The position numbers and the translations under genes are program-made. The notes under the pieces are model-generated. The model searched no databases and was not told where the DNA came from. It saw nothing but the letters and a program-made list of their open reading frames with translations. From the IMG/VR virus record IMGVR_UViG_2534681672_000003, positions 1-56,022 of that record: a stretch of DNA of 56,022 nt; one strand, 5' to 3'. Shown in pieces: positions 17,353 to 36,060 of this stretch. Positions within the stretch are counted from its first letter, which is position 1. Every line of letters starts with the position of its first letter. This stretch comes from a virus (lineage: Duplodnaviria > Heunggongvirae > Uroviricota > Caudoviricetes).

Positions 17353-18143
17353 TTACGCCAGTTGTACGGACACGAACTCATCAGGGTCAGCCAGCAGCAT
17401 CAGCGGTGCTGACTGAATCATGGTGAACTCACGCGCCGGATCGCCGGTGGTCACCCAGTTTTTCGGGTAGCGGGCAGAGGCGTTAATGCCTTCGCGCTGT
17501 GCGTCCGCATCCTGAATGCAGCCATAGGTGCGCAGACCGCGTGCCTGAGTGTTCCCCAGCACCATCGTGTTGTCCGGCAGGAAGTTCTTTTTGACGCCGT
17601 TTTCCACGTACTGTCCGGAATACACGACGATGGCCACATCGCCATACATTCCCTTATAGGACACCGCTTTGCCCAGGTCTTTTACCGCTGTCTCCAGCTC
17701 GGAATGAGAGCCGCGACGGGTATCCAGCTTCTCCCTGACGGCTTTGAAAGAACGGAACAGCGCCCAGCCTTTCGGATCAAACACGATGATATTCACCACA
17801 CCGCTGGCGTTCAGCGCGTAGGCTTCGATATCGTCTGTCGGGTCATACGTGGACTTGTCACGCTTGCTCCACTCCGTGCCGCCGGACTGCGTGATGTTAT
17901 TCGCCTCACTGCGGCCCATATCCACCTCAACCGGATCGAAGGCTTCACCGGTCATGGTGTATTTGCCCTTAAGCACGGCAGAAACTGCCTGCATCTCTTC
18001 GACCTGAGCAATGGCCAGCTCTTCGTCACGCATGTTCTGCATGATGATGCGACGGCGGCGGTAAGTCGGGTCCGCCAGATTCTGCGGATCTTCATCCGGC
18101 AGGCGACGCAGGGTCATCTGCGGATTCACCTCATGCTTCGGCT
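17353..18143 (-). pseudogene. E: major capsid protein E, 3' part (codons ~79-341), separated from its 5' part by the insertion
   Basis: The minus strand reads (K)PKHEVNPQMTLRRLPDEDPQNLADP...EFVSVQLA, collinear with the lambda gpE C-terminus. No start codon or ribosome-binding site is left at the break. Confidence 0.95.
18134..18143. repeat. left copy of the 10-bp direct repeat (att core) TGCTTCGGCT
   Basis: Identical to 29567-29576. It lies exactly where E homology stops. Confidence 0.9.
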
Positions 18144-18277
18144 ACATGAGTCAAATATGAAAGGATGTGAATGATTTGATTACGTTTTAGCTATAGAATT
18201 GAAATGGAAAATCCTTGAATGCAATACAACGTGCAATACATGGATGAAAACCATCACTCATTTAACAAGAGGAATCT

Positions 18278-19183
18278 ATGCGCTCACCCAACAGAATGCA
18301 TGAACGCTCAACATTTTATAAGTATATGTCGTTGAATACCGCGAAGATTGTTCTTGATTCATGCAGCCTTAGATGGAGTTCTCCGGTCCTATTTAATGAC
18401 CCTTTTGATGTTCCAAGAGAAGTTATGCCTGGTATTAACGAAATTAATATTGGCAAAGCTTTAGCCCGCAAGTTAATAGCGGAGTTGATTACCCCCAGAG
18501 AAGACATACAAAATTTAAACCCTAGAATTAGAACAATGCTAAGTGATTTCCAAAAGTCATTTCCTTTAGGCATACCCGCAGGATTAATTGAAAGATTTCA
18601 AGAAATGGTAAACATTCCACCAGTTGGGATTGGCGCTCCTGCGGCAATACAAGAAATGAAAGATGTCTGGCGAGGAATGCTTAATAACAGAAGGATTTTG
18701 TGTTTATCTGAGAGCCCTATAATCACTCCTATGTGGAATCACTATGCCGATAAATATAAAGGTATAGTTATCGAATTTGATTGTGTAGACTTTCTGGATA
18801 GCGCTTGGTTAATAGCCAAACCTATGAAATACACAGATGAAATGCCTCTAACTCACACTGCTGAAGGGATGGCCGAGTTGCTTTTCATGCCAGACAATAA
18901 GTCAATTGAATATATCAATAATGAGATAATATTCATAAAAACAGAAGAATGGGCATATGAAAGAGAGTGGAGAATTTCAACCTACGCTAGGCCAAATAGC
19001 ACTGGTCAATATAGCGACTTAAAATTTCACCCTTTTGAGTTAAAATCTGTAATACTTGGTCCTCTTTTTGATGCCAGCGAGTTCGATGAAGTCGCATCAC
19101 TAGTTAAGATGTATCCAAGAGCGAAATTATTTAAAAGTTCATTTGGGAACGACAGAAAAATATCCATAGTACCACTACCTTAA
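18278..19183 (+). CDS. cargo protein with a DUF2971-like N-terminal signature
   Basis: 301-aa ORF with a ribosome-binding site AAGAGG. FYKYMSLNTAKIVLDSCSLRWSSPVLFNDPFD resembles the DUF2971 family signature, by recall. The gene is AT-rich, opposes the core genes, and has its own terminator. Confidence 0.55.
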   Translation: MRSPNRMHERSTFYKYMSLNTAKIVLDSCSLRWSSPVLFNDPFDVPREVMPGINEINIGKALARKLIAELITPREDIQNLNPRIRTMLSDFQKSFPLGIPAGLIERFQEMVNIPPVGIGAPAAIQEMKDVWRGMLNNRRILCLSESPIITPMWNHYADKYKGIVIEFDCVDFLDSAWLIAKPMKYTDEMPLTHTAEGMAELLFMPDNKSIEYINNEIIFIKTEEWAYEREWRISTYARPNSTGQYSDLKFHPFELKSVILGPLFDASEFDEVASLVKMYPRAKLFKSSFGNDRKISIVPLP

Positions 19184-19213
19184 AAGGTCAAATGCTTTTG
19201 ACAAATAAAATCT

Positions 19214-19239
19214 ATCGCCAGTTTTACTGGCGACTTTTA
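19214..19239. terminator. hairpin plus T-run between the convergent cargo and Nu1-like genes
   Basis: TCGCCAG-TTTTA-CTGGCGA followed by CTTTT. Confidence 0.6.
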
Positions 19240-19289
19240 AGCAACAAAGAACCACCTAAGCACTCTTCCTACCTATGGTTTCATTTGTT

Positions 19290-19841
19290 TTAACTTCGCT
19301 GATTATCCTTGATATACCTTTCAGCCATATCTGGAATGTTATCTGAGATCTGGTAAGCTCGAATAAATGCTTTACTGACCTCCATCTTAATGAAGTCCTG
19401 ATACCGTTTTCCCATGCCAGGAAACTGTCGACAGATCGCAAGTGGAAGACTATCAATGATTGCTCCAACTTCCCCAGTTAATTTCGACAAGGCATAAGTC
19501 GCAAATGCAGTGTCAATTACCTCACCTGTTTCGCTGGCATTCTTCAGTTCCTGTGCGTCGGCCTGCGCACGCGTAAGTCGATGGCGTTCATACTCAATAG
19601 TCCCTGGCAGGAGATCTGCCTCGCTGGCCTGCCGCAGTTCTTCAACCTCCCGGCGCAGCTTTTCGTTCTCAATTTCAGCATCCCTTTCGGCATACCATTT
19701 TATGACGGCGGCAGAGTCATAAAGCACCTCATTACCCTTGCCACCGCCTCGCAGAACGGGCATTCCCTGCTCCTGCTAGTTCTGAATGGTACGGATACTC
19801 GCACCGAAAATGTCAGCCAGCTGCTTTTTGTTGGCTTCCAT
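19290..19841 (-). pseudogene. Nu1-like small terminase gene with an in-frame TAG at codon 22
   Basis: MEANKKQLADIFGASIRTIQN*QEQGMPVLRGGGKGNEVLYDS... The first ~100 codons are almost identical to the resident Nu1, and the C-terminal ~80 codons are divergent. The ORF track picks up only from M27 (19763). Confidence 0.8.
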
Positions 19842-20085
19842 TGTTCATTCCACGGACAAAACCAGAGAAAGGAAACGACAGAGGCCAAAAAGCCTGTTTT
19901 TAGCACCTGTCGTTTCCTTTCTTTTTAGGGGGTGTTTTTAATAAAAACATTAAGTTACGGCGAAGAAGAACGGAAACGCCTTAAACAGGAAAATTTTCAC
20001 AAATAGCGAAAAACTGCGCGCCTGACGCCCCGTAGCCTGTCAGATCGCCGGAAAGGACCCGCCAGCCAGAGCGGGCCCTAATTTC
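19842..20085 (-). other. satellite cos region (cosB-cosN-cosQ-like); predicted cosN 12-mer at 20019-20030
   Basis: Collinear, without indels, with the resident cos at 35829-36048. The 12-mer CGCCTGACGCCC replaces AGGTCGCCGCCC. Confidence 0.75.
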
Positions 20086-20086
20086 A

Positions 20087-20470
20087 TCAACCAATCAGCT
20101 TATAGCGACCATCCCGTGCATTGCGGCGTACACGCTCAATCTTGAGGCATAGCGCCGCATCTGGCTTTTTTGGGACAGGTACGCGGCAATATTCAGAAGC
20201 GCGAGGAATATTATTTATCCAGTCGATCACTTCACTTAAATACCAGGCCTTACGCCCTTCCGTAACCTGCACACGCTCCGGGAACTCTCCACTAGCCTCA
20301 AGGTTTAGCAGTGTACGACGACTCAGGGTTGTAATTTCCATCACCTGATTCATATCAACAAGGCGCTCGCTTAAACACATTTTGTCAGCGATAGCTTTTA
20401 ATTCCTCTACAGCTGGATTCGGGTACATCATTTCGGCAATTGGCTTAAGGTCATTGTAATCATTCTGCAT
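20087..20470 (-). CDS. AlpA/MerR-superfamily HTH protein with N- and C-terminal extensions
   Basis: 127-aa ORF. The core MEITTLSRRTLLNLEASGEFPERVQVTEGRKAWYLSEVIDWI fits the AlpA-family pattern. A GGGGGA ribosome-binding site is present, and the gene is tightly coupled behind the D-like gene. Confidence 0.6.
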   Translation of the reverse strand: MQNDYNDLKPIAEMMYPNPAVEELKAIADKMCLSERLVDMNQVMEITTLSRRTLLNLEASGEFPERVQVTEGRKAWYLSEVIDWINNIPRASEYCRVPVPKKPDAALCLKIERVRRNARDGRYKLIG

Positions 20471-20481
20471 TGTATCCCCCT

Positions 20482-20823
20482 TTACACACGAGCCAGCGGC
20501 TGAACAGAAATACCTGAGCCAACAAACGCTGCAACCTTTACTGACAGTTCTTTAACAGACTCAGGCCAGTTCAGAGCATCAACATTTAAGACACCTGTCT
20601 TATAGACCTGAGCCTGTGTTTTTTTCGCGGTGTCGATTTGTACAGCGGAAACATAAACCGCTTTACCTACGCTCGAACCATCCCATACCACCAGTGCACC
20701 TGTTGCATCTTCCTGCATCAGTGGCGTAAATGCAGGAATTACCCCTTTATTAGCTGAAAATATCCCCAGCGTAGTCACCAGTGCTTCAGTGCCAGCCATG
20801 AGTTCAGTGTAATGAGTAGCCAT
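20482..20823 (-). CDS. head decoration protein, lambda gpD-like
   Basis: 113-aa ORF. It aligns by eye with gpD at TPLM..LV.WDG..., YK.G..., WPE... and AF.G..IS. Confidence 0.65.
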   Translation of the reverse strand: MATHYTELMAGTEALVTTLGIFSANKGVIPAFTPLMQEDATGALVVWDGSSVGKAVYVSAVQIDTAKKTQAQVYKTGVLNVDALNWPESVKELSVKVAAFVGSGISVQPLARV

Positions 20824-20832
20824 TGCTCCCCC

Positions 20833-21873
20833 TTAGCCAATGCGAACGGTAACAAAACGATTGATGCGGGCCGGTATTGGCTGTGGTGCTGAATGTGTCT
20901 GCACATATTCAATAGCCGGATCACCAGGCACAATATAGTTTTTCGGTGCAAGTTCGGCTTTAGTCAGCCCCATTCGGATTAGCTCCGGATCCTGAATACC
21001 GCCATAGGCGACAATCCCCTGAAGAGCCGTATTGCCAAGCACCATCAAATCAGGATCAAGGAAATGTTTTTCTGTTCCGTCCTCGTCGGTATAACGCCCG
21101 CTGTAAACAACAATCGCAACATCGCCCATATACCCTTTAAAACTCACCGAATCACCAAGGTCTTTAAGGGCCGTTTCCAGTTCGGAATTAGAACCACGAC
21201 GGGTATCCAAAGCCTCTTTTATCGCTCTGAATGAACGGTATTTCTTCCATACATTACCACCCATAATGATGATATTAGTGACGCCCTCACTAAATTCTGC
21301 GTAGCTCTCAATATCATCATTTGGATCAAAAGTTTCTTTATCCTTACCTGACCACTCAGTACCGCCAGACTGAGTGATGATATTTTGTGGTTTTATATTC
21401 CAGTCCAGCTCATAACGTTCAATACCATCGCCCTCAATGATATTTTTCCCCGTTGTGATAGCCTGAACAGCAAGCCATTCAATACGTGCACGAATAGCTT
21501 TAGCCTGATTTACAATCGCCTGTTTAACTTTAATATTACGCGCCCCAAAAGCATTGTATTGCTCAGGTGACACACCAGCAGGGCGCACAGCTAACTTATT
21601 TGGATCAATGCTGCTTTTCGGCTTCATATAACCTGGACGAATTGTTTTTGATTCGTATCCCTCATCTCGTGAAACTTTACTGCCCACCATAGGAGAGCAA
21701 AACGCCGCGATCGGGATATTTGGATCGTCGATCGTATCAAGAATAATGTCTCTCGATTCAAACATTACCGAGCGAGTGAAAAACAAACTGGTAAACAACG
21801 CATTTAATTTTTTTTGTACATCTACAGCATTAACCACCTGTACAAGCTGAGTAGGCGAATATAAATCAACCAT
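20833..21873 (-). CDS. major capsid protein, lambda gpE-like (satellite-encoded)
   Basis: 346 aa from MVDLYSPTQLVQVV. Conserved blocks are QSGGTEWS..DK.T.DP.DDIE.YA and LDTRRGSNSELETA.KDLG..VS.KG..GDVAIVVYSG. AAGAGG lies upstream of the ATG at 21873. Confidence 0.85.
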   Translation of the reverse strand: MVDLYSPTQLVQVVNAVDVQKKLNALFTSLFFTRSVMFESRDIILDTIDDPNIPIAAFCSPMVGSKVSRDEGYESKTIRPGYMKPKSSIDPNKLAVRPAGVSPEQYNAFGARNIKVKQAIVNQAKAIRARIEWLAVQAITTGKNIIEGDGIERYELDWNIKPQNIITQSGGTEWSGKDKETFDPNDDIESYAEFSEGVTNIIIMGGNVWKKYRSFRAIKEALDTRRGSNSELETALKDLGDSVSFKGYMGDVAIVVYSGRYTDEDGTEKHFLDPDLMVLGNTALQGIVAYGGIQDPELIRMGLTKAELAPKNYIVPGDPAIEYVQTHSAPQPIPARINRFVTVRIG

Positions 21874-22069
21874 ACGCATCCTCTTTGCATTCATTAAAAA
21901 TAATTGTGGATATATGCTATCACCGATATTTGTCATGCGAACACATGCAACCGAGTGCAATGTTGTATAAAGTTTTGGGGTGACAACTTCAGTGCGGACA
22001 ATTAGTGTTAATATCTTCACTCCCTTTGGTCGGGATTTATGTAGCATGCAGGAAAATTTATTTTTTCCG

Positions 22070-22790
22070 GCCTTTTTGTGCACAGAAAACCCCCAGCTAG
22101 GCTGGGGGTTCCGGAAAGCTTTCAGCTTTGAGCCAGTTATTAAAACCCCTTTTGATTTGTTAAAACACTTTGCGGTCTGGCAACTGCAAGTGTCAAACAA
22201 GAAATCAAAAGGGGGTCCCAATGGGGAACGAAAAGAGCTTAGCGCACACCCGATGGAACTGTAAATATCACATAGTTTTTGCGCCAAAATACCGAAGACA
22301 GGTGTTCTACAGAGAGAAGCGTAGAGCAATAGGCAGTATTTTGAGAAAGCTGTGTGAGTGGAAAAGCGTACGGATTCTGGAAGCTGAATGCTGTGCAGAT
22401 CATATCCATATGCTTGTGGAGATCCCGCCCAAAATGAGCGTATCCGGGTTTATGGGATATCTGAAAGGGAAAAGCAGTCTGATGCTTTACGAGCAGTTTG
22501 GTGATTTGAAATTCAAATACAGGAACAGGGAGTTCTGGTGCAGAGGGTACTACGTCGATACAGTGGGTAAGAACACGGCGAAGATACAGGATTACATAAA
22601 GCACCAGCTTGAAGAGGATAAAATGGGAGAGCAGTTATCGATTCCCTATCCGGGCAGCCCGTTTACGGGCCGTAAGTAACGAAGTTGGATGCAAATGTCA
22701 GATCGTGTGCGCCTGTTAGGGCGCGGCTGGTAAGAGAGCCTTATAGGCGCATTTGAAAAACCTCCGGCTATGCCGGAGGATATTTATTTT
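22070..22790 (+). mobile_element. IS200 (IS200/IS605 family) copy; ends approximate
   Basis: tnpA is flanked by the characteristic hairpins CCCCCAGCTAGGCTGGGGG (left) and CCTCCGGCTATGCCGGAGG (right). The size is about 0.7 kb. Confidence 0.7.
22221..22679 (+). CDS. tnpA: IS200 Y1 (HuH) transposase TnpA
   Basis: MGNEKSLAHTRWNCKYHIVFAPKYRRQVFY...HIHMLVEIPPKMSVSGFMGYLKGKSS... is the typical 152-aa IS200 TnpA. Confidence 0.92.
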   Translation: MGNEKSLAHTRWNCKYHIVFAPKYRRQVFYREKRRAIGSILRKLCEWKSVRILEAECCADHIHMLVEIPPKMSVSGFMGYLKGKSSLMLYEQFGDLKFKYRNREFWCRGYYVDTVGKNTAKIQDYIKHQLEEDKMGEQLSIPYPGSPFTGRK

Positions 22791-22801
22791 ATTGGCAATA
22801 T

Positions 22802-23251
22802 TTAAAACGGGATATCATCTCCCCATTGCTCATTATCTCCCACTGGTGGCTGGCTTCCTTGCTGATCTGCCTGTTGTTTTGCTCTGTTCAGTGCGTCAGT
22901 AGCCTGCCCCTGTTGGCCTTTATTGCCGCCCGGTCGCACCGATCGCGCACTGATTACGCTGTCTGCGATAACCTGCCAGCCCTGCCGCGTTTCGCCGTTC
23001 TGTCCAGTCCACTGGCTCATCTGCATGTTACCCGCCACGCTCAGGAGTTCGCCTTTGTGATGCTTTGCCAGCGCGTCGGCTTGTCTGCCAAACGCCAGGA
23101 CAGATAACCACATCGTCGCCTGACCGTCATCCGACTGACTGCAGGGCAGTGATACCGCCATACGCGCCAACGTCATGGGGGTGCCCTTGCTGGTCTGTTT
23201 TGTCTGCGGGTCGTCCACCGACCGCCCGTAAACTGATATTTGCGCCGTCAT
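22802..23251 (-). CDS. ssb: single-stranded DNA-binding protein
   Basis: 149-aa ORF with an OB-fold-like N-terminus and a Gly/Gln-rich linker. It ends with the canonical SSB tip ...DDIPF. Confidence 0.8.
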   Translation of the reverse strand: MTAQISVYGRSVDDPQTKQTSKGTPMTLARMAVSLPCSQSDDGQATMWLSVLAFGRQADALAKHHKGELLSVAGNMQMSQWTGQNGETRQGWQVIADSVISARSVRPGGNKGQQGQATDALNRAKQQADQQGSQPPVGDNEQWGDDIPF

Positions 23252-23493
23252 GCGGCCTGCTCTCCGGACTTAATATTGATTGTTGTCACTTCCTCCGCTT
23301 CAGCAATCTCCCGTTCGGTCAGAGTGGCAAAGTTTGCAGCCGCCGTTGTCATGAATGCGCTAATCAGTTCGGGATGTGCTTTCGCGTATCCTTCCCCGGC
23401 GTTGCGGTCGATGATTTTTATCGACACCCTTAACCAGTGTTCCGTCAAATCAAGGGCGTGCGATTGTGATTTTTTTGTGTGCTTCGCTGTCAT
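23248..23493 (-). CDS. hypothetical protein
   Basis: 81-aa ORF whose stop overlaps the ssb start by 4 nt. It lies directly downstream of the origin repeats. Confidence 0.5.
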   Translation of the reverse strand: MTAKHTKKSQSHALDLTEHWLRVSIKIIDRNAGEGYAKAHPELISAFMTTAAANFATLTEREIAEAEEVTTINIKSGEQAA

Positions 23494-23544
23494 AGGCTTT
23501 ATCTCACAGCAGTAAATTAAAATTTTTGCGTTTTAACCCTTCAC

Positions 23545-23767
23545 CTGTTCACCTTTTGATATTTTCTCTTTTAATTCATAATGTTAATGGGTGAACAGTT
23601 TCACAAAAACTATTCACCAACTGTTCACCACTGTTCACCCTTGAAGCTCAATAAACAATCAAAAAGGTGAACAGTGAATAGTTTGGTGAACAGTTCATAA
23701 ATAACTGTTCACCCTATAATATACTGATATAAAAGATATTTATGACAGGGTGAACAGTGGTGAACAG
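23545..23767. repeat. satellite replication origin: iterons GGTGAACAG / CTGTTCACC with AT-rich spacers
   Basis: The perfect 9-mer occurs 5 times forward (23590, 23666, 23685, 23749, 23759) and 4 times inverted (23545, 23621, 23631, 23705), plus degenerate copies. The region sits just after the replication gene. Confidence 0.8.
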
Positions 23768-23780
23768 TTATTCCATAAGT

Positions 23781-25601
23781 TTAATTTTTGCTATCGTCAT
23801 TAGTGACCGATACACATGATGGCATCCAGTCTTCTGATTCCTCCGTCAGGGTCACGTTTGAACGCAAACCGTGCTTCGTTTTCCGTTTCATATACTCCCT
23901 GCCATATTCCGCCATTGCCCCCGGCATATCTTTACCGAAGCGCGTCAGTGTTACAGGTTTACCAAACCCATGTGCCCTCATATAAGCCAGATAGGCATGA
24001 TAGAGATACCTGCGTGGGCTGAATGGCACAATTTCAGCATTACCCACTAACAGGCCATCACACATTACCGATGCCATGAGATAACCGCAGAAGTCCACCA
24101 GCGAATCCCCCTCTCGCTTTATCGCCAGTGCTTCTTCAGATTTCTGCTGCTCATATAACAGGCGTCTGGCTTCGTCCTGATCAGCAAACCTTGTAAGCAG
24201 ATGACGAATCACTACCGCCAGCTCACCTTCTATTTTTTCCGCCAGCATCGAATCGCGTTCGTTCTCCGGTACAACTTCCGAAAAATTGAATATCACCCGA
24301 CGACGTGAGATCCCCCCGCTGCGGTCACTGAATGACATGGCGTTATTGTTAACCGCCAGCACTACTGCCGGAATACGCGTTGAATAGGGGGCTTTGTGTT
24401 TCGGGTCAATTGCCACCTTGTCACCGCCTGTAATGGCCTTAATCCCTGCCCCATCACCAGCGTAGCGGGTCATATCCGGCATGATAATCAGCGAAAAGCC
24501 AACCACTAACGCACGTTCCCTTGCATCTTCCAGCGCCTTCATGCTTGCTGATACTGTATTAGCCTTACCCGCCAGCATGGTGCAAATCTCCGCCATCACA
24601 CTTTTACCACTTCCCCCCGGCCCTGTTACCTCAATGAATAACTGCCAGTCGTACCGGTTCGCCAGCACCATGAATAATGCCGCCAGTACGCGATCTGCCT
24701 TGCGGTCATTCTCAGCCACCGAACGGCGCAACCACTTCCAGAAATTCGGCGCATGTGTTGCCAGCGTTTCCCCCTCTGCTGGTGGGCTGAAAGGTAATTC
24801 ACTGGCAATTAACAACCAGTCGTTTTTGTTATGCTCCCGAAAGTTACCAGTTCTGGTATCAAATACCCCGTTACTGAATCCAATCAGGTTACGGGCTGTA
24901 TTCCCCATTACAGGCAAACTTAACTTCATGGTATCTACCGCCGATTTAATAGCGTTCTGCGAATAGCTGATCTCCGCATCAATGAAAATCTGCGCCATAG
25001 CACGCTGTAACTCTTTATCCTGAACCGGCTCCCATACAACGCCGTTGTAATGATGAACGGTGTCAGAGTCGGCATTGATTGCCAGTTCGCCGCCGTAATG
25101 TGCAAGGAGAACTTCACCGCGCTGGCTGGCCCCCATCTGATTCAACGCCAAAGATGAAGCACGCTCGTCATTTTTGCGCTCAGCCTTCTTCACTGGCAGT
25201 TCAATCACCAGACTTTCCCCATGCTCCGCTTCAGCTTTTAGGCCGACAAGGCGCGGAGTCCAGTCTTCAGGCTCTCGATCAACAAAGCTACGGTAACAAC
25301 GTGCTTCCTTTACGCCTGCAATAGCAAGTAATGTCGCAACCTTCGTCAGACTTTTCTCTGCAATCTTTCCGGCACGATAAACACGCACATAATGACGGCC
25401 TTCATCGATAATTTGCATATCATCCAGGTTTTCCAGTTGTTCCGTACCCAGAATGACTGGTGGTGTATCATCTGCTGCAATATGCTTACCTGCCCATTCA
25501 TTCCATTCTTTTGCATGGCTCCAGGCATCACTGCCAGCAAAAATGATGACTTCCGTCATTTTGTCGCGCGGTTGGTATTTTAAGTTCGGAGCACGTTTCA
25601 T
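23781..25601 (-). CDS. replication protein: D5/P4-alpha-type SF3 helicase (primase-helicase family)
   Basis: 606-aa ORF with the Walker A motif GPGGSGKS. The surrounding pattern is typical of the phage/plasmid primase P4-family C-terminal domain. The ATG overlaps the upstream stop (ATGA). Confidence 0.8.
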   Translation of the reverse strand: MKRAPNLKYQPRDKMTEVIIFAGSDAWSHAKEWNEWAGKHIAADDTPPVILGTEQLENLDDMQIIDEGRHYVRVYRAGKIAEKSLTKVATLLAIAGVKEARCYRSFVDREPEDWTPRLVGLKAEAEHGESLVIELPVKKAERKNDERASSLALNQMGASQRGEVLLAHYGGELAINADSDTVHHYNGVVWEPVQDKELQRAMAQIFIDAEISYSQNAIKSAVDTMKLSLPVMGNTARNLIGFSNGVFDTRTGNFREHNKNDWLLIASELPFSPPAEGETLATHAPNFWKWLRRSVAENDRKADRVLAALFMVLANRYDWQLFIEVTGPGGSGKSVMAEICTMLAGKANTVSASMKALEDARERALVVGFSLIIMPDMTRYAGDGAGIKAITGGDKVAIDPKHKAPYSTRIPAVVLAVNNNAMSFSDRSGGISRRRVIFNFSEVVPENERDSMLAEKIEGELAVVIRHLLTRFADQDEARRLLYEQQKSEEALAIKREGDSLVDFCGYLMASVMCDGLLVGNAEIVPFSPRRYLYHAYLAYMRAHGFGKPVTLTRFGKDMPGAMAEYGREYMKRKTKHGLRSNVTLTEESEDWMPSCVSVTNDDSKN

Positions 25602-25885
25602 TTGTTACCTCCGGCAACTAACATTGCCCGAATTTTACGGATATAGCCTGCGGCACGCCTCTGATTATCTGTCTTGCAATTTTTTACCAGAATGAAATCT
25701 CTTTCGAACTGCTGACGCGGCATAACACATTCAAAATCATAACCATCACGCAAATAAGAGACACGACGATCATCAACCGAAATAATCTTTACCCGATAGC
25801 CATAGCTGTCTTTGAAAATATCCCCAAGGCTGATTTTTGAATGAGTTTGACCGCTGGCAATAAAGCCAGAAAATTTATTTTTCAT
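25598..25885 (-). CDS. DUF4222-like small protein
   Basis: 95 aa. The pattern Y.V.II..D..RV.Y.R.G...ECVM.R..F..DF..V matches the family signature by recall. Confidence 0.5.
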   Translation of the reverse strand: MKNKFSGFIASGQTHSKISLGDIFKDSYGYRVKIISVDDRRVSYLRDGYDFECVMPRQQFERDFILVKNCKTDNQRRAAGYIRKIRAMLVAGGNK

Positions 25886-25888
25886 TTT

Positions 25889-26113
25889 TTATTCTCCGGT
25901 ATAGCTCTGGTCGTGTATTTTTATAGCTTCATCCAGCTCTTTGATGACAGGATCAAGTAACGTAATTAACGCTCCAGCTAAATTAGCATCCCGTTCATCG
26001 TGTTCCGCATTTGTTGTCCCATCAAGCCAGGTTGATAAGATTTCTCGCATATTTTTGCCACAAACGAGCGCGTTTTCAGCATGTGTCAGCACTTTAAAAT
26101 AAAGATCATTCAT
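25889..26113 (-). CDS. hypothetical protein
   Basis: 74-aa ORF in the leftward operon. No family was recognised. Confidence 0.45.
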   Translation of the reverse strand: MNDLYFKVLTHAENALVCGKNMREILSTWLDGTTNAEHDERDANLAGALITLLDPVIKELDEAIKIHDQSYTGE

Positions 26114-26471
26114 GGCACACCTCCTGACGAATACGGGCGGCGAATATCATCACGTAGCCAGTTGGGAATTGCTGGCGGGCTTCCTGTTCGCTGGCGGCCT
26201 CGATGTGTATTACGCGTGGTTGTGCGGTGCTCAGGGCGATAAAACGCCAGATGAAATTGTTTTCGCATTTCTGAATAAACAGCGTGTTTTCTTCACGCCC
26301 TTTCCAGAAAGCCGCAGTATAGCCCATCTCCTTAACCATCTTGCGGGCATCAACCAGCGTGTCAGCGGCAACATGTACCGTAGTTGCTCCATCTGCCATG
26401 CGGTCGTGGTGTAGTGCCAGAAAGGTGTATATAAATTTAGGGTGAGTTTGGGTATGCTGTGTTCCAGCCAT
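26106..26471 (-). CDS. Icd-like (host cell division inhibitor-like) protein
   Basis: Start set at MAGTQHTQTHPKF with a GAGG ribosome-binding site. FIWRFIALSTAQPRVIHIEAASEQEARQQFPTGYVMIFAARI fits the Icd-like pattern, and a weaker first repeat lies upstream. Confidence 0.55.
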   Translation of the reverse strand: MAGTQHTQTHPKFIYTFLALHHDRMADGATTVHVAADTLVDARKMVKEMGYTAAFWKGREENTLFIQKCENNFIWRFIALSTAQPRVIHIEAASEQEARQQFPTGYVMIFAARIRQEVCHE

Positions 26472-26557
26472 AATCGTTACCTCGTTTAACGGTTTGGTTA
26501 GAAGCCCGGTTAGTGTTCGCGCACTGCCGGGTTTCGTCGTTTTTATGAATCGATCAT

Positions 26558-26660
26558 TGTGAGATACATAGCGACCATGATGTGAGATATACATTATAAT
26601 GTGGTGATATACATTGCAAGTGTTTTTATATCTCACTTTTGTGTATAGTGATATACACAT
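26558..26660. promoter_or_regulatory. divergent control region with repeated operator-like motif GTGA(G/T)ATA(TA)CAT
   Basis: Copies lie at about 26558, 26580, 26600 and 26646, with an inverted copy at 26627. The region sits between the leftward icd-like operon and the rightward RHH-like gene. Confidence 0.6.
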
Positions 26661-26679
26661 AACAAATTGGTGATTAACT

Positions 26680-26982
26680 ATGTCTGTATACAAAAATGCA
26701 AAATCGCAAATGACAACGATCAGGGTTCCCCACGATGTTATGGAGGGCATGGAATCCGTAAAACTGGACGGCGAAAGCAACGCCGGATTCATAGTAACCG
26801 CCATGCGCGGTGAGATCGCCCGCCGCCAGGCAGAAGGAAGCGGAGAAAATCCCCTCGTGTCTTCACTGGATGCCTTAGCTAAGGTCGAACAAATCGGCAT
26901 CAAGGCAGCGGAGGAAATCGGGCAACTCGTAGCCGTCGCTCGTGAAGAACTCCAGCGGCGTAAAGCCAAAGAATCTGAATAA
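26680..26982 (+). CDS. putative ribbon-helix-helix (CopG/Arc-like) regulator
   Basis: TTIRVPHDVMEGMESV...NAGFIVTAMRGEIARR fits a strand-helix-helix layout. The true start may be the internal M at MTTIRVP. Confidence 0.45.
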   Translation: MSVYKNAKSQMTTIRVPHDVMEGMESVKLDGESNAGFIVTAMRGEIARRQAEGSGENPLVSSLDALAKVEQIGIKAAEEIGQLVAVAREELQRRKAKESE

Positions 26983-27332
26983 TTACTATCAGCGCCGTGA
27001 TGTGAGTAACTACGGCGCATTGCTATGTAAATACTGGCAATAAACAGAAAAGGTAGTTCTACTCCGAATAATTTTATCTGACACTACTCCTGAACTAACA
27101 TGCGCTTATCTTACAGGATATAAATATAGATCCATAAAATCACGATTAAATAAAGCCGCTCCAAACATAAACCACACCCAACGCTTAACAAGATAGCAAC
27201 AAACAGATAAATAACTTGCAGAAATATTTATCGCAAGGATTATCATTATTAATTACAAATCACTTTACCAAGTCATTCCCCTCTCTTATCATAAAGAGAA
27301 AGTAATAAATAAGTTAAGGGAGTTAGAATACT

Positions 27333-27869
27333 ATGAATCTAAAAAAAATAGCCACAAACATAAAAAACAAGATAATAGAAACATTCAATAAACTTATATT
27401 AGAGGCATCTAAAACCCCCACACAAGATGAAATTAAAATACTTGAGAGAAGAAGTAAAAAGTTTAATTACTCCTTTTTCTCATACGCAGTCACAGGAGCC
27501 ATAATGGTTTTTTGCTCTCAACCATTAATAAAATACGCAAACCCAATGCTTATTTTATTGAGTGGTCTGTTACTGTCTATCATCATTATCCTTCTCAGAA
27601 TGATTTATATTTCACAAGCGAATGCATCATGGACAACCAAAAAACGTTCACATGTACTAGTTCATTTTCTTTCTGCATGTTTCATAGCGTCAACATTGAC
27701 GTTGTTATATCAGGCTTACGATAATAACATCACACACAAATTGTACTGTAAAAATATACAACAACTTATTGAAAAAAGGATAGAAACAGAAAAAAATATC
27801 AGCATATTCAGTGGGATGCAATGCACCCCGGCATATGATTACTCTTTATTTGGATTTAATCTCTTATAA
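27333..27869 (+). CDS. cargo membrane protein (about 3 predicted TM helices)
   Basis: 178-aa ORF in a very AT-rich block. The hydrophobic stretches are AVTGAIMVFCSQPL, LILLSGLLLSIIIILL and LVHFLSACFIASTLTLL. Confidence 0.55.
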   Translation: MNLKKIATNIKNKIIETFNKLILEASKTPTQDEIKILERRSKKFNYSFFSYAVTGAIMVFCSQPLIKYANPMLILLSGLLLSIIIILLRMIYISQANASWTTKKRSHVLVHFLSACFIASTLTLLYQAYDNNITHKLYCKNIQQLIEKRIETEKNISIFSGMQCTPAYDYSLFGFNLL

Positions 27870-27938
27870 AGAATGTTATTACTGATTTGAGTGCAAATTC
27901 TCAAATCAGTAATTCATAATATTTTATTCTGAGATAAT

Positions 27939-28166
27939 TTAAACTACCCACTCACCTCGAATCCATGCCTGCACTTCTGAAAGACGATATGCAACAGCAG
28001 TGGAGCCAATCTTGATCCGCTTAGGAAATTTCCCTTCCTTCTCCAGCTTCCAGCGTGTGCTGTTCGCAAGAGTGGTTAGCTCCCGACATTCTTTCTCACG
28101 GATCATACGATCGATGTTAGGAATGTACTCCAAACCCTTTTTATCAACAATCGCCATTTTTTTCAT
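27939..28166 (-). CDS. alpA: AlpA-family transcriptional regulator/excisionase
   Basis: 75 aa. IREKECRELTTLANSTRWKLEKEGKFPKRIKIGSTAVAYRLSEVQAWI is a typical Phage_AlpA HTH. The gene lies directly downstream of int. Confidence 0.8.
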   Translation of the reverse strand: MKKMAIVDKKGLEYIPNIDRMIREKECRELTTLANSTRWKLEKEGKFPKRIKIGSTAVAYRLSEVQAWIRGEWVV

Positions 28167-28167
28167 G

Positions 28168-29403
28168 TTAACCAGCCTTTTGTTTGAGGATTATCACTTT
28201 TGAATCAGCACCTGCGATGCTATTGAGATATGTAGTCCAGAGTTCCAGAGCATCCAGTTTTTTAGCCATAAACTTACTCCGGTTGTAAACACCTGCCACG
28301 CCAGGTAGCGCATGGCCTAACAGTTGTTCTACTACATAAAATTCAACACCGAGATCACTTAGATGAGTAGATAGCGTTCTTCTAAGGTCGTGTAGTGACC
28401 ATTGTTTTTCATGGCCCAAACGTTTACCGATTTTCCCCCCAATCTTGCTTACGCTTTCTCTAATTCGCAGACTTCCCAGCACATAACCAGTATGTTTTGT
28501 CTCTTCGTGAACATCCGTTACCCACTGTCGTAGAATTTCAGGTACTGGTCTGACGATTTCAACACCAGTTTTTGAGTGATCTTTTGGTACCGTCCAAACC
28601 CAACTTTCGAGATCCCATTCGCTCCATTCAGATAATCGGGCTTCACTCATTCGACATCCAAATACTGTACAAAGCACAAACATTTTTCGCGTGTATTCAG
28701 ACATTAGTTTTAAATCAGGCTCGACAAAAATTGCCTTCCAGAGCTGGCCCAGTTCGGCTTCATCCAGAACCCGATCCCGCTTACCTGCAATCTGCCCCAC
28801 ATCACTCATGCGCAAATCCTTTAAAGCATCACATGTCGCGTACTGGCGTACCCGACAAAAACGAAGAGCTAATTTAGTGTCAGAAAAAACATACGCCGCC
28901 ATAACTGGTGCATTACGTTTAATTCGGTCAAAACAGTCCAGCCATTCATATAGGTGAGTGTCATTTACAGGCAAATGACCGATATAGGGAAAGATATGCT
29001 TTCGAAATCTGCCAAGCGTTACAGCATGAGTTTTACGACGCACCTTACAGTAATTTTCATACCAGTAATTTAGTGCATCCTCCACTGTGACCGGCTTTAA
29101 GCGTTCTTCAGCCTGAATCTTAATCTGGATACGCGGATCACGTTTGTCAGCCAACCAACCACGGCACTCGTCGCGCTTTTCCCTTGCCTGTTTGAGTGAC
29201 ATATCAGGATATTTACCCAACGTTAGCCAGACCGGAGCAGCCCGGCCACCTGCTAACCTGTAGAAGAAAACAAAGCTCACAGCCCCCTTGGTACTCACAC
29301 GAATAGAAAGCCCCTTTCCATCAGCAATGGTGATCTGCTTTTCTCTGGGTTTCCCCAGATATCCTTTAAGCGCTTTGTCGCTCAGTTTGTTCTCGCCAGC
29401 CAT
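28168..29403 (-). CDS. int: tyrosine integrase, P4-type (DUF4102 arm-binding N-terminus)
   Basis: Start at MAGENKLSDKALKGYLGK. The N-terminus has GKGLSIRVSTKGAVSFVFFYRL, and the catalytic region has HDLRRT...LGHALPGVAGVYNR. The gene abuts the right att copy. Confidence 0.9.
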   Translation of the reverse strand: MAGENKLSDKALKGYLGKPREKQITIADGKGLSIRVSTKGAVSFVFFYRLAGGRAAPVWLTLGKYPDMSLKQAREKRDECRGWLADKRDPRIQIKIQAEERLKPVTVEDALNYWYENYCKVRRKTHAVTLGRFRKHIFPYIGHLPVNDTHLYEWLDCFDRIKRNAPVMAAYVFSDTKLALRFCRVRQYATCDALKDLRMSDVGQIAGKRDRVLDEAELGQLWKAIFVEPDLKLMSEYTRKMFVLCTVFGCRMSEARLSEWSEWDLESWVWTVPKDHSKTGVEIVRPVPEILRQWVTDVHEETKHTGYVLGSLRIRESVSKIGGKIGKRLGHEKQWSLHDLRRTLSTHLSDLGVEFYVVEQLLGHALPGVAGVYNRSKFMAKKLDALELWTTYLNSIAGADSKVIILKQKAG

Positions 29404-29566
29404 TTTTAGCCCCAAAAAGCAATACAAGCTGCAATACAGAGATGATTGCAACACACAGATAACGAGGAAAATTCAGTGAAAGCGCCAGATAAACTTATTC
29501 TTTATTATCAAAAGATTAAGTGTAAAAACCAGCAACTACACGAAAGCCTCAGAAAGCCATGCTAAG

Positions 29567-29576
29567 TGCTTCGGCT
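29567..29576. repeat. right copy of the 10-bp direct repeat (att core) TGCTTCGGCT
   Basis: Identical to 18134-18143. E homology resumes here. Confidence 0.9.
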
Positions 29577-29811
29577 TGACATATCCCGGCGTAAATTCAG
29601 AGGTGGAGCCGCCACGGGAACGGATAACCTCACCGGAAACAATCGGCGAAACGTACAGCGCCATGTTTACAAGTCCCGGAATTTGTGAGAGATAGACTTT
29701 CTCCGTAGTGAAGGGATAGCTCTCACGGAAAAAGAGACGCAGAAACAGCGGATCAAACTTAAATTTCTGCTCATTTGCCGCCAGCAGCTGGGCGGTTGTG
29801 TACATCGACAT
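29567..29811 (-). pseudogene. E: major capsid protein E, 5' part (codons 1-82)
   Basis: MSMYTTAQLLAANEQKFKFDPLFLRLFFRESYPF...EFTPGYVKPKH matches the lambda gpE N-terminus. The frame then runs into satellite DNA (LAWLSEAFV*). Confidence 0.95.
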
Positions 29812-31581: not shown

Positions 31582-35282
<3,701 letters not shown>

Positions 35283-35308
<26 letters not shown>

Positions 35309-35828
35309 TCAGCAACCCCGGTATCAGTTCATCCAGCGCGGCTGCTTTGTTCATGGCTTTGATGATATCCCGTTTCAGGAAATCAACATGTCGGTTTTCC
35401 AGTTCCGGAAAACGCCGCTGCACCGACAGGGGGATCCCGTCGAGAATACTGGCAATTTCACCTGCGATCCGCGACAACACGAAAGTACAGAATGCGGTTT
35501 CCACCACTTCAGCGGAGTCTCTGGCATTCTTCAGTTCCTGTGCGTCGGCCTGCGCACGCGTAAGTCGATGGCGTTCGTACTCAATAGTCCCTGGCTGGAG
35601 ATCTGCCTCGCTGGACTGCCGCAGTTCTTCAACCTCCCGGCGCAGCTTTTCGTTCTCAATTTCAGCATCCCTTTCGGCATACCATTTTATAACGGCGGCA
35701 GAGTCATAAAGCACCTCATTACCCTTGCCACCGCCTCGCAGAACGGGCATTCCCTGTTCCTGCCAGTTCTGAATGGTACGGATACTCGCACCGAAAATGT
35801 CAGCCAGCTGCTTTTTGTTGACTTCCAT
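35283..35828 (-). CDS. Nu1: terminase small subunit Nu1
   Basis: 181-aa ORF, MEVNKKQLADIFGASIRTIQNWQEQGMPVLRGGGKGNEVLYDS... Confidence 0.95.
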
Positions 35829-36060
35829 TGTTCATTCCACGGCCAAAAACAGAGAAAGGAAACGACAAAGGCCCAAAAGTTCGTTTTCAGCACCTGTCGT
35901 TTCCTTTCTTTTCAGGGGGTATTTTAAATAAAAACATTAAGTTACGACGAAGAAGAACGGAAACGCCTTAAACCGGAAAATTTTCATAAATAGCGAAAAC
36001 CCGCGAGGTCGCCGCCCCGTAACCTGTCGGATCGCCGGAAAGGACCCGTTGGCCGTTCTG
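35829..36060 (-). other. cos: resident cos site (cosB, cosN, cosQ); cosN 12-mer at 36006-36017
   Basis: The minus strand reads ...CGACAGGTTACG GGGCGGCGACCT CGCGGGTTTTCGCTATTTATGAAAATTTTCCGG..., which is the lambda cohesive-end sequence. Confidence 0.9.

Follow-up and report, generated by a model that had tools for sequence, protein, structure and literature searches.

The window analyzed here, all 56,022 nucleotides of IMG/VR record IMGVR_UViG_2534681672_000003, contains a lambda-like Escherichia coli prophage (the resident, or helper) and, inserted in its major capsid gene, a phage-inducible chromosomal island (PICI), referred to below as the satellite. The satellite carries a 528-bp block made up of a complete lambda-type cos site and the first 102 codons of the small-terminase (TerS) gene Nu1. 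At a sharp boundary this block is joined to a PICI-specific C-terminal half, and the resulting mosaic gene is interrupted by a stop codon. The block probably serves as the satellite's own cis-acting packaging site, read by Nu1 and gpA (the large terminase subunit, TerL) of the helper, with the satellite's own full-length Nu1-like protein apparently dispensable. The features concerned are as follows.

18134-29576, minus strand: satellite of ∼11.43 kb, a helper-embedded PICI with a 10-bp flanking block that splits gene E (PMC10111431)
19534-20061, minus strand: shared block, lambda-type cos plus Nu1 codons 1 to 102, 94.3% identical to 35521-36048
19290-19841, minus strand: satellite Nu1-like small-terminase gene of 183 codons, lambda-type N half (codons 1 to 102) and PICI-type C half (codons 103 to 183), disrupted here
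19776-19778, minus strand: codon 22, an in-frame TAG here, whereas the resident and intact satellite alleles have TGG
19290-19533, minus strand: PICI-specific C-terminal half, identical at 29/79 amino acids to resident Nu1 and at 55/81 to a Citrobacter PICI homologue
20054-20060, minus strand: cosQ, GGGTCCT, identical in satellite and resident; the block starts 1 to 2 bp upstream
20019-20030, minus strand: 12-nt cosN overhang, variant allele GGGCGTCAGGCG; GGGCGGCGACCT in the resident and lambda, 5/12 positions differing
19866-19978, minus strand: cosB, with the R3 core at 19967-19978, the R2 core at 19911-19922, the R1 core at 19866-19877, and the I1 region between R3 and R2
35283-36048, minus strand: resident counterpart of Nu1 and cos, with an intact lambda-type Nu1 of 181 amino acids at 35283-35828
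36006-36017: overhang of the resident cos, with R cores at 35954, 35898, and 35853
33383-35308, minus strand: resident gpA, 641 amino acids, intact, the sole large terminase in the window

The shared block and its origin

Positions 19534-20061 aligned with 35521-36048 without gaps, both in an ungapped comparison and with MAFFT, and 498 of the 528 positions were identical. A first-pass annotation of this sequence had counted about 30 substitutions by hand and described the block as cos plus roughly 100 Nu1 codons. Both statements hold, with 30 mismatches and a complete lambda-type cos followed by codons 1 to 102, and the C-terminal peptides that it quoted are correct. Two features had escaped it, namely, the stop codon described below and the clustering of mismatches at cosN. 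Most 30-bp windows within the block had 26 to 30 identities, against 22 to 24 across cosN, where 7 of the 30 mismatches gather in and beside the 12-nt overhang (20013-20025). Similarity had also been said to collapse outside the block. This is true on the right, where identity beyond ∼20069 is at chance level (3 to 11 of 30), but to the left of 19534 it drops to 14 to 18 of 30, and the sequence there is still homologous, representing a diverged Nu1 C half.

Maximum chi-square analysis of the satellite and resident gene alignment placed a breakpoint after gene nucleotide 308 (window position 19534), with 7 differences in 308 nucleotides on one side of it and 115 in 232 on the other. The observed value was reached in 0 of 500 permutations, and the uniform divergence that would speak against a mosaic was not seen. 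The block covers the winged-helix DNA-binding domain and the helical linker of Nu1, and identity stops within ∼10 nucleotides after an AQADAQELKNA motif, which is conserved across Nu1 variants. Synonymous divergence (dS) between satellite and resident was 0.045 in codons 1 to 102 and was saturated in codons 103 to 178 (proportion of synonymous differences [pS], 0.77). This difference between the halves indicates recombination, not mimicry, as the origin of the mosaic gene with its sharp boundary at codon 102/103.

The first-pass annotation had offered two explanations for the block, recent recombination with a helper and selection to mimic the helper's packaging signal. It had also suggested a comparison with other lambdoid cos regions. 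In this comparison the block was 93 to 96% identical to the cos/Nu1 regions of lambda-type phages generally (94.5% for lambda itself), and 4119 of 5426 E. coli genomes contained a match to it, in most cases at 90 to 95% identity. In a mismatch matrix of satellites against residents (five pairs), no satellite was distinctly closest to its own helper; outside the cosN core, the window satellite had 24 mismatches to its own resident and 17 to 26 to five unrelated residents. The similarity of the block is thus not specific to this resident. Recombination is well supported, but it appears neither recent nor to have involved this prophage. A recent origin of the block by recombination or gene conversion with the satellite's own host prophage is very improbable, even though the two copies are direct repeats separated by 16 kb on one replicon and conversion tracts are found in other satellite copies. 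Convergent selection without recombination can be practically dismissed. The R cores and cosQ are indeed constrained, because helper terminase must recognize cos, but mimicry cannot yield identity at synonymous sites, and here identity runs through the synonymous sites of 102 codons before ending abruptly after the AQADAQELKNA motif.

Anatomy of cos and the cosN allele

The satellite cosQ was assigned by the position that cosQ has relative to cosN in lambda. The landmarks of cosB were taken from Murialdo & Feiss 2022 (PMC9026076). Together they give the canonical order and spacing of cosQ, cosN, and cosB (R3-I1-R2-R1) upstream of Nu1. The three R cores are the same as those of the resident and the cosN spacing is kept, with no insertions or deletions relative to the resident; alignment to lambda needs one 1-nt gap, between R2 and R1. 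The Nu1 start lies ∼190 nt from the start of the overhang, compared with 191 nt in lambda. The overhang itself is GGGCGTCAGGCG instead of the lambda cohesive-end sequence GGGCGGCGACCT, with two more changes just 3′ of it, at 20015 and 20013.

All seven satellite copies that were retrieved independently of cosN had the GGGCGTCAGGCG overhang, and the variant allele was present in 56 IMG/VR contigs. Three of these contigs (L021, L055, and L065) were genuine lambda-like prophages in which GGGCGTCAGGCG stands beside a complete Nu1 of lambda type, and L055 gpA was identical to resident gpA at 636 of 641 positions. Since real lambda-like prophages carry it, GGGCGTCAGGCG is a natural cosN allele. Lambda-type phages with virtually one and the same gpA are thus polymorphic at cosN, and the presence of GGGCGTCAGGCG does not exclude the satellite site from the lambda type. 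An ordinary lambda-family terminase presumably cuts it, which fits the low sequence specificity described for the TerL nuclease (PMC9026076). The occurrence of the allele in these prophages, together with the near-identity of the L055 and resident gpA, ruled out a satellite-specific invention needing a special nuclease.

A further polymorphism was seen in the cosQ-cosN spacer (window 20031-20047). Comparison with L005, L006, L007, L012, and L016 revealed two haplotypes with 6 to 7 differences in 32 bp, one of which has the prophage allele at diagnostic sites 20042 and 20035 and is probably another small conversion patch.

A widespread nonsense allele in the Nu1-like gene

The recognition helix of TerS spans residues 17 to 24 (PMC9026076), and the TAG at codon 22 of the satellite gene falls inside it. 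No uninterrupted reading frame for the gene is present in the window; the longest open reading frame (ORF) begins at Met27 (19290-19763), and the RefSeq annotation is that of a pseudogene containing an internal stop. With a stop in the recognition helix, the DNA-recognition part and the divergent C half cannot share one polypeptide. The chimeric small terminase that had been proposed is therefore correct for the gene, which does join a lambda-type N half to another C half, but an intact chimeric protein is not encoded in this window.

The TAG allele is common. An exact 61-mer spanning it was found in 17 of 32 satellite-bearing complete E. coli genomes, in prophages at different chromosomal sites (the DLP12 site and Qin) and alongside primase and Bro modules that vary from satellite to satellite. 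Intact 183-amino-acid ORFs were identified in L002, L003, L012, L029, L047, L052, and L057. Two of these, L012 and L052, have the haplotype of the window with TGG at codon 22, so the TAG is a single derived mutation that has nonetheless spread. The converse history, an ancestral TAG later repaired by gene conversion, was ruled out, as L012 and L052 have a pure satellite haplotype with TGG. The intact L002 allele matched the Pfam family Phage_Nu1 (PF07471) at an E value of 6e-84 over profile positions 1 to 162 of 164, and its N half shows near-identity to lambda TerS as solved in structures 6hn7_B and 1j9i.

The C-terminal half belongs to PICIs

When the C half was compared with resident Nu1 by part, 16 of 38 residues were identical in the self-association region and 13 of 41 in the TerL-binding tail. 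It was present in just 32 of the 5426 E. coli genomes, at an identity of at least 99.4%. A tblastn search of 50,697 phage records did not find it in sequenced phages, the best matches being the lambda-type Nu1 of PhiR5_1 (38.5%) and that of lambda (38.0%). A search of 5.8 billion proteins gave 21 matches, of which the eight closest full matches (67 to 100%) were the satellite's own cluster plus Citrobacter, Klebsiella, and metagenomic proteins. The three of these whose context was examined lay in the Citrobacter PICI or in remnants in unrelated islands. The C half was thus seen only in PICI contexts or as remnants in unrelated islands, never beside TerL. A loan from a phage with a matching TerL was ruled out on these grounds, given the best phage match of 38.5% and the closest proteins lying in the satellite cluster, the Citrobacter PICI, and island remnants. 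Comparison of the E. coli and Citrobacter PICIs showed purifying selection on the C half, with a proportion of nonsynonymous differences (pN) of 0.16 and a pS of 0.78. No similarity of the C half to Rpp, the packaging protein of other PICIs discussed below, was detected, and no solved structure covering it was found.

Module swapping and allele exchange

A chromosomal Citrobacter PICI has the same late module as the satellite (cap_E, D, AlpA, cos, and a Nu1-like gene). Its C half is the homologue noted above, and its N half (38/85) and cosB are different; its combination is KSC-N with PICI-C, that of the window element lambda-N with PICI-C. No phage matching the Citrobacter PICI cosB or N half was found in the phage collection, where just ∼70 bp around cosQ-cosN matched. 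Nine E. coli PICIs in IMG/VR (L019, L024, L025, L036, L037, L044, L046, L060, and L063) combine the satellite's AlpA flank and cosN allele with KSC-N and a 21-like C half. Other sister PICIs with the same flank and cosN have a lambda-like cosB and either a 12-codon Nu1 remnant or no Nu1 gene. P0014 has a lambda-N half with a 21-C half, and the reverse arrangement was found in the L005 helper prophage (E. coli MLI106K3, 32699-33544), where a 21-type TerS N half and cosB are joined to a C half and gpA of lambda type. The satellite residing in this helper has a lambda-type cosB and the TAG allele; judging from these sequences, the helper should not recognize its passenger's packaging site. In these combinations the modules meet around the AQADAQELKNA motif, and the Nu1 module boundary is a general recombination junction.

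Within the block, prophage-type alleles occur in long runs in satellite copies (15 to 16 of 28 diagnostic sites in L002, L029, L047, and L057; 11 of 28 in L003), and some of the "satellite" alleles were found in prophages too. The block is therefore engaged in ongoing allele exchange with lambda-like prophages generally.

As a separate observation, the nine KSC-type PICIs have an unrelated cosB and an intact TerS of 183 amino acids (MVSMKLHLMNKKNMAKSC...) encoded ∼140 nt downstream of cosN. PICIs of the L019 type fit the design of SaPIs (pac-type staphylococcal PICIs), with their own DNA specificity and helper-type TerL binding.

Proposed packaging role

We infer that the satellite is packaged in cis by the terminase of its helper. 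In this account, cosB and the DNA-binding half of Nu1 would form a "specificity cassette" from the common gene pool of lambda-like phages, which could enter and leave PICIs by homologous recombination between two anchors, cosQ/cosN and the AQADAQELKNA-coding motif. The satellite would excise from gene E and replicate; excision of a helper-embedded PICI from E has been shown for 11capE (PMC10111431). The helper's intact Nu1 would then bind R3, R2, and R1 of the satellite, helper gpA would nick the variant cosN, and satellite DNA would be packaged cos to cos. Consistent with this role, cosQ, the three R cores, and the cosN-R3 spacing are conserved, and resident Nu1 and gpA are intact, the latter being the enzyme expected to cut both cos sites. 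Since about half of the satellite copies have the stop and have still spread, the full-length Nu1-like protein does not seem to be needed for spread alongside a lambda-type helper. The sister PICIs with the same flank and cosN that have cosB but no Nu1 gene, like 11capE, point in the same direction.

Several observations weigh against this account. The C half is under purifying selection and intact 183-amino-acid alleles persist; a present or recently lost function of the protein, which a cis-acting site leaves unexplained, is therefore probable. The N-terminal coding part of Nu1 is 2.3% divergent versus ∼10% for cos itself; a purely cis role does not predict conservation of the N part above that of cos, whereas recent gene conversion would. 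The seven satellites found independently of cosN all keep the variant overhang despite adjoining conversion tracts, and this fixed overhang could reflect selection on cosN that is likewise not accounted for. Cutting of the variant cosN by this helper is a prediction. Lastly, the TAG-bearing L005 satellite resides in a helper with 21-type TerS/cosB specificity, which should not read a lambda-type cosB.

An alternative is that the chimeric TerS of the intact alleles is a working packaging factor, its lambda-type N half binding cosB and its PICI C half engaging the helper TerL/TerS oligomer differently. It would favor packaging of the satellite or allow packaging by helpers of other cosB specificity, and the TAG copies would represent recent losses of function. 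This is possible but the less likely explanation. Intact ORFs exist and match Phage_Nu1 over its full length, and the C half is both selectively constrained and confined to PICI contexts or unrelated-island remnants away from any TerL. TerS is also among the core PICI components and is thought to redirect packaging (PMC10085698), and this satellite does occur in helpers that combine a 21-type TerS N half with a C half and gpA of lambda type. However, the protein cannot be made from the window, and the 17 of 32 copies with the stop have still spread. As the satellite cosB is the same as that of the helper, the protein would not discriminate satellite from helper DNA. The terminase subunits of lambda and 21 are classically not interchangeable, and the identity of the putative TerL-binding tail to that of lambda (13/41) is at the level where this incompatibility holds (PMC9026076). 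Moreover, the L005 satellite, for which a TerS of its own would be necessary, carries the TAG allele.

The intact protein could plausibly act on helper terminase, as an adaptor or by interference. In an extended form of this idea, the PICI C half would be a satellite invention that acts on helper terminase, as a TerL adaptor or as a poison subunit in mixed Nu1 oligomers, and that was kept while the cosB and DNA-binding cassette was swapped to track local helpers; this we consider unlikely. If true, it would constitute a third packaging-piracy strategy for cos satellites beside Rpp and SaPI-type TerS, and the fixed variant overhang could help tell satellite DNA from helper DNA. More doubtful still is a function for the 157-amino-acid product starting at Met27 (19290-19763) as a decoy without a DNA-binding domain, which would co-assemble with helper Nu1 or gpA and interfere with helper packaging. 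The frame is open from Met27, the ATG is preceded by AGGAG at a distance of 6 nt, the TAG allele is frequent and broadly distributed, and several distant homologues are called as N-terminally short. Against this, ordinary prophage nohD genes often have the GAG allele, and it accompanies TGG in L003, L012, and L052, so that the AGGAG is older than the TAG and no adaptation; an evolved internal ribosome-binding site was thereby ruled out. The TAG is one derived change on an otherwise identical haplotype (L012 and L052), and truncation at the same position has not recurred independently. The short Klebsiella homologues proved to be frameshifted remnants in unrelated islands, outside PICIs, and recurrent N-terminal truncation was accordingly rejected as a sign of a functional protein lacking the DNA-binding domain.

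Relation to known packaging systems

Helper-embedded PICIs, the sharing of cos between PICIs and helpers, late-gene capture, TerS as a PICI core gene, and domain swapping between lambda and 21 TerS were already known. No literature description was found of a mosaic in which a C half of PICI lineage follows a helper-type cosB and DNA-binding half, of the widespread nonsense allele, or of the fixed cosN allele.

The closest relatives are the helper-embedded PICIs inserted at E:Phage_cap_E:80, for which 11capE in helper 50icd is the model (Tommasini, Mageeney & Williams 2023, PMC10111431). The window satellite shares with 11capE the insertion site (E, codon ∼80) and co-orientation, a zone with int and AlpA, a Bro/immunity zone, a D5-type primase with SSB, and a late zone with cap_E and D homologues. 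As in 11capE, a cos segment is common to satellite and helper. Helpers have been proposed as the source in "late gene capture" (PMC10111431). 11capE is said to be without terS and to have 258 bp at 90% identity in common with its helper (PMC10111431), whereas the window satellite has 528 bp at 94% and a Nu1-family gene with a PICI-specific C half. The mosaic gene, the nonsense allele, and the cosN allele are not described in the account of 11capE (PMC10111431).

Rpp-type cos PICIs such as EcCICFT073 (Fillol-Salom et al. 2019, PMC6739421; Murialdo & Feiss 2022, PMC9026076) are likewise E. coli PICIs that use lambda-like cos machinery and carry, just downstream of cos at the position of phage terS, a gene with a TerS-like winged-helix N terminus. 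They keep cosQ and cosN and have an unrelated cosB that is read by an Rpp-TerS heterodimer. The window satellite, in contrast, has a helper-type cosB, a different overhang, and a true Nu1 homologue in place of an rpp gene downstream of cos; the similarity of the latter to RppC (E value, 0.04) is limited to the DNA-binding fold. The AlpA-like gene beside cos was also considered as an Rpp homologue and was ruled out, as its PDB and Pfam matches were to AlpA only.

SaPI TerS is similar in being a small-terminase homologue encoded beside the packaging site, but it alters DNA specificity and stays compatible with helper TerL. The window gene does the opposite: its DNA-binding half and cosB are helper type, and the part presumed to bind TerL lies in the altered C half, which matches resident Nu1 at 29/79 positions. 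In chimeric lambda/21 small subunits (Frackman, Siegele & Feiss 1985, as summarized in PMC9026076), the N half and adjacent cosB set DNA specificity, the C half sets TerL specificity, and the two can be recombined. The lambda-N/21-C gene of P0014 and the 21-N/lambda-C gene of the L005 helper found here are natural counterparts. In phages the C half fits the TerL encoded next door, while the satellite C half comes from a lineage without a TerL gene.

The locus is thus a natural case of a helper-type cosB and DNA-binding module fused to a satellite-lineage C module without a cognate TerL. The population evidence adds a general recombination junction, exchange of block alleles with prophages, and an apparent dispensability of the full-length protein for about half of the copies. 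Should the intact protein act on helper terminase, its packaging-hijack logic would be opposite to that of Rpp as well as SaPI TerS; otherwise, the locus would be a captured late-gene fragment decaying beside a functional cos.

The satellite and its host prophage

The window is a 100% match to a stretch of the E. coli SCU-102 chromosome, where a lambda-like prophage with complete head and tail genes occupies the DLP12 site. The satellite is bracketed by a 10-bp identity block, TGCTTCGGCT, at 18134-18143 and 29567-29576. It splits the prophage major capsid gene E at codon ∼80 into an N part (29566-29811) and a C part (17353-18141), with the junction reading ...GYVKPKH|EVNPQMT..., and its genes lie on the same strand as E. 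The same arrangement, inside E and co-oriented, was found in L002, L003, L005, L006, and L007. The satellite is a helper-embedded PICI of the cap_E:80 group, and the identical target site suggests that its integrase falls in the corresponding phylogenetic subclade. It brings no replacement sequence for the split gene, and the helper therefore cannot produce its own capsid protein before the satellite excises from E, in agreement with the published configuration of helper-embedded PICIs.

The satellite encodes an integrase, AlpA, a D5-type primase, SSB, homologues of capsid protein E and decoration protein D, a second AlpA-like protein, the Nu1-like gene, and a DUF2971 protein. Pfam matches included Phage_integrase with Arm-DNA-bind_3, Phage_AlpA, D5_N/DUF5906/Pox_D5, SSB, Phage_cap_E, and HDPD. 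The neighboring features are listed below.

20087-20470, minus strand: AlpA-family gene directly upstream of cos (Pfam and PDB matches)
20482-20823: satellite D-like gene
20833-21873: satellite E-like gene
18278-19183, plus strand: DUF2971 gene at the distal end of the satellite, on the strand opposite to all other satellite genes
∼22170-22900, plus strand: IS200C insertion between the satellite SSB and capsid genes, with tnpA at 22221-22679

Upstream of cosQ, beside the AlpA-family gene, a 38-bp stretch is kept at 36 to 38 of 38 bp in almost all sampled PICIs with the same cosN allele. The DUF2971 gene occupies the place where PICIs often bear accessory or defense cargo. The IS200C insertion is not present in the related satellites L002, L003, L005, L006, and L007, and it gives rise to a spurious 498-amino-acid ORF call over the satellite capsid gene. 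A degraded composite was found in the Qin prophage of E. coli PSJ-16 (L004, 18449-19419), in which a truncated satellite D-like gene abuts a helper gpA fragment and nohA, the remainder of the satellite and the helper head genes having been deleted.

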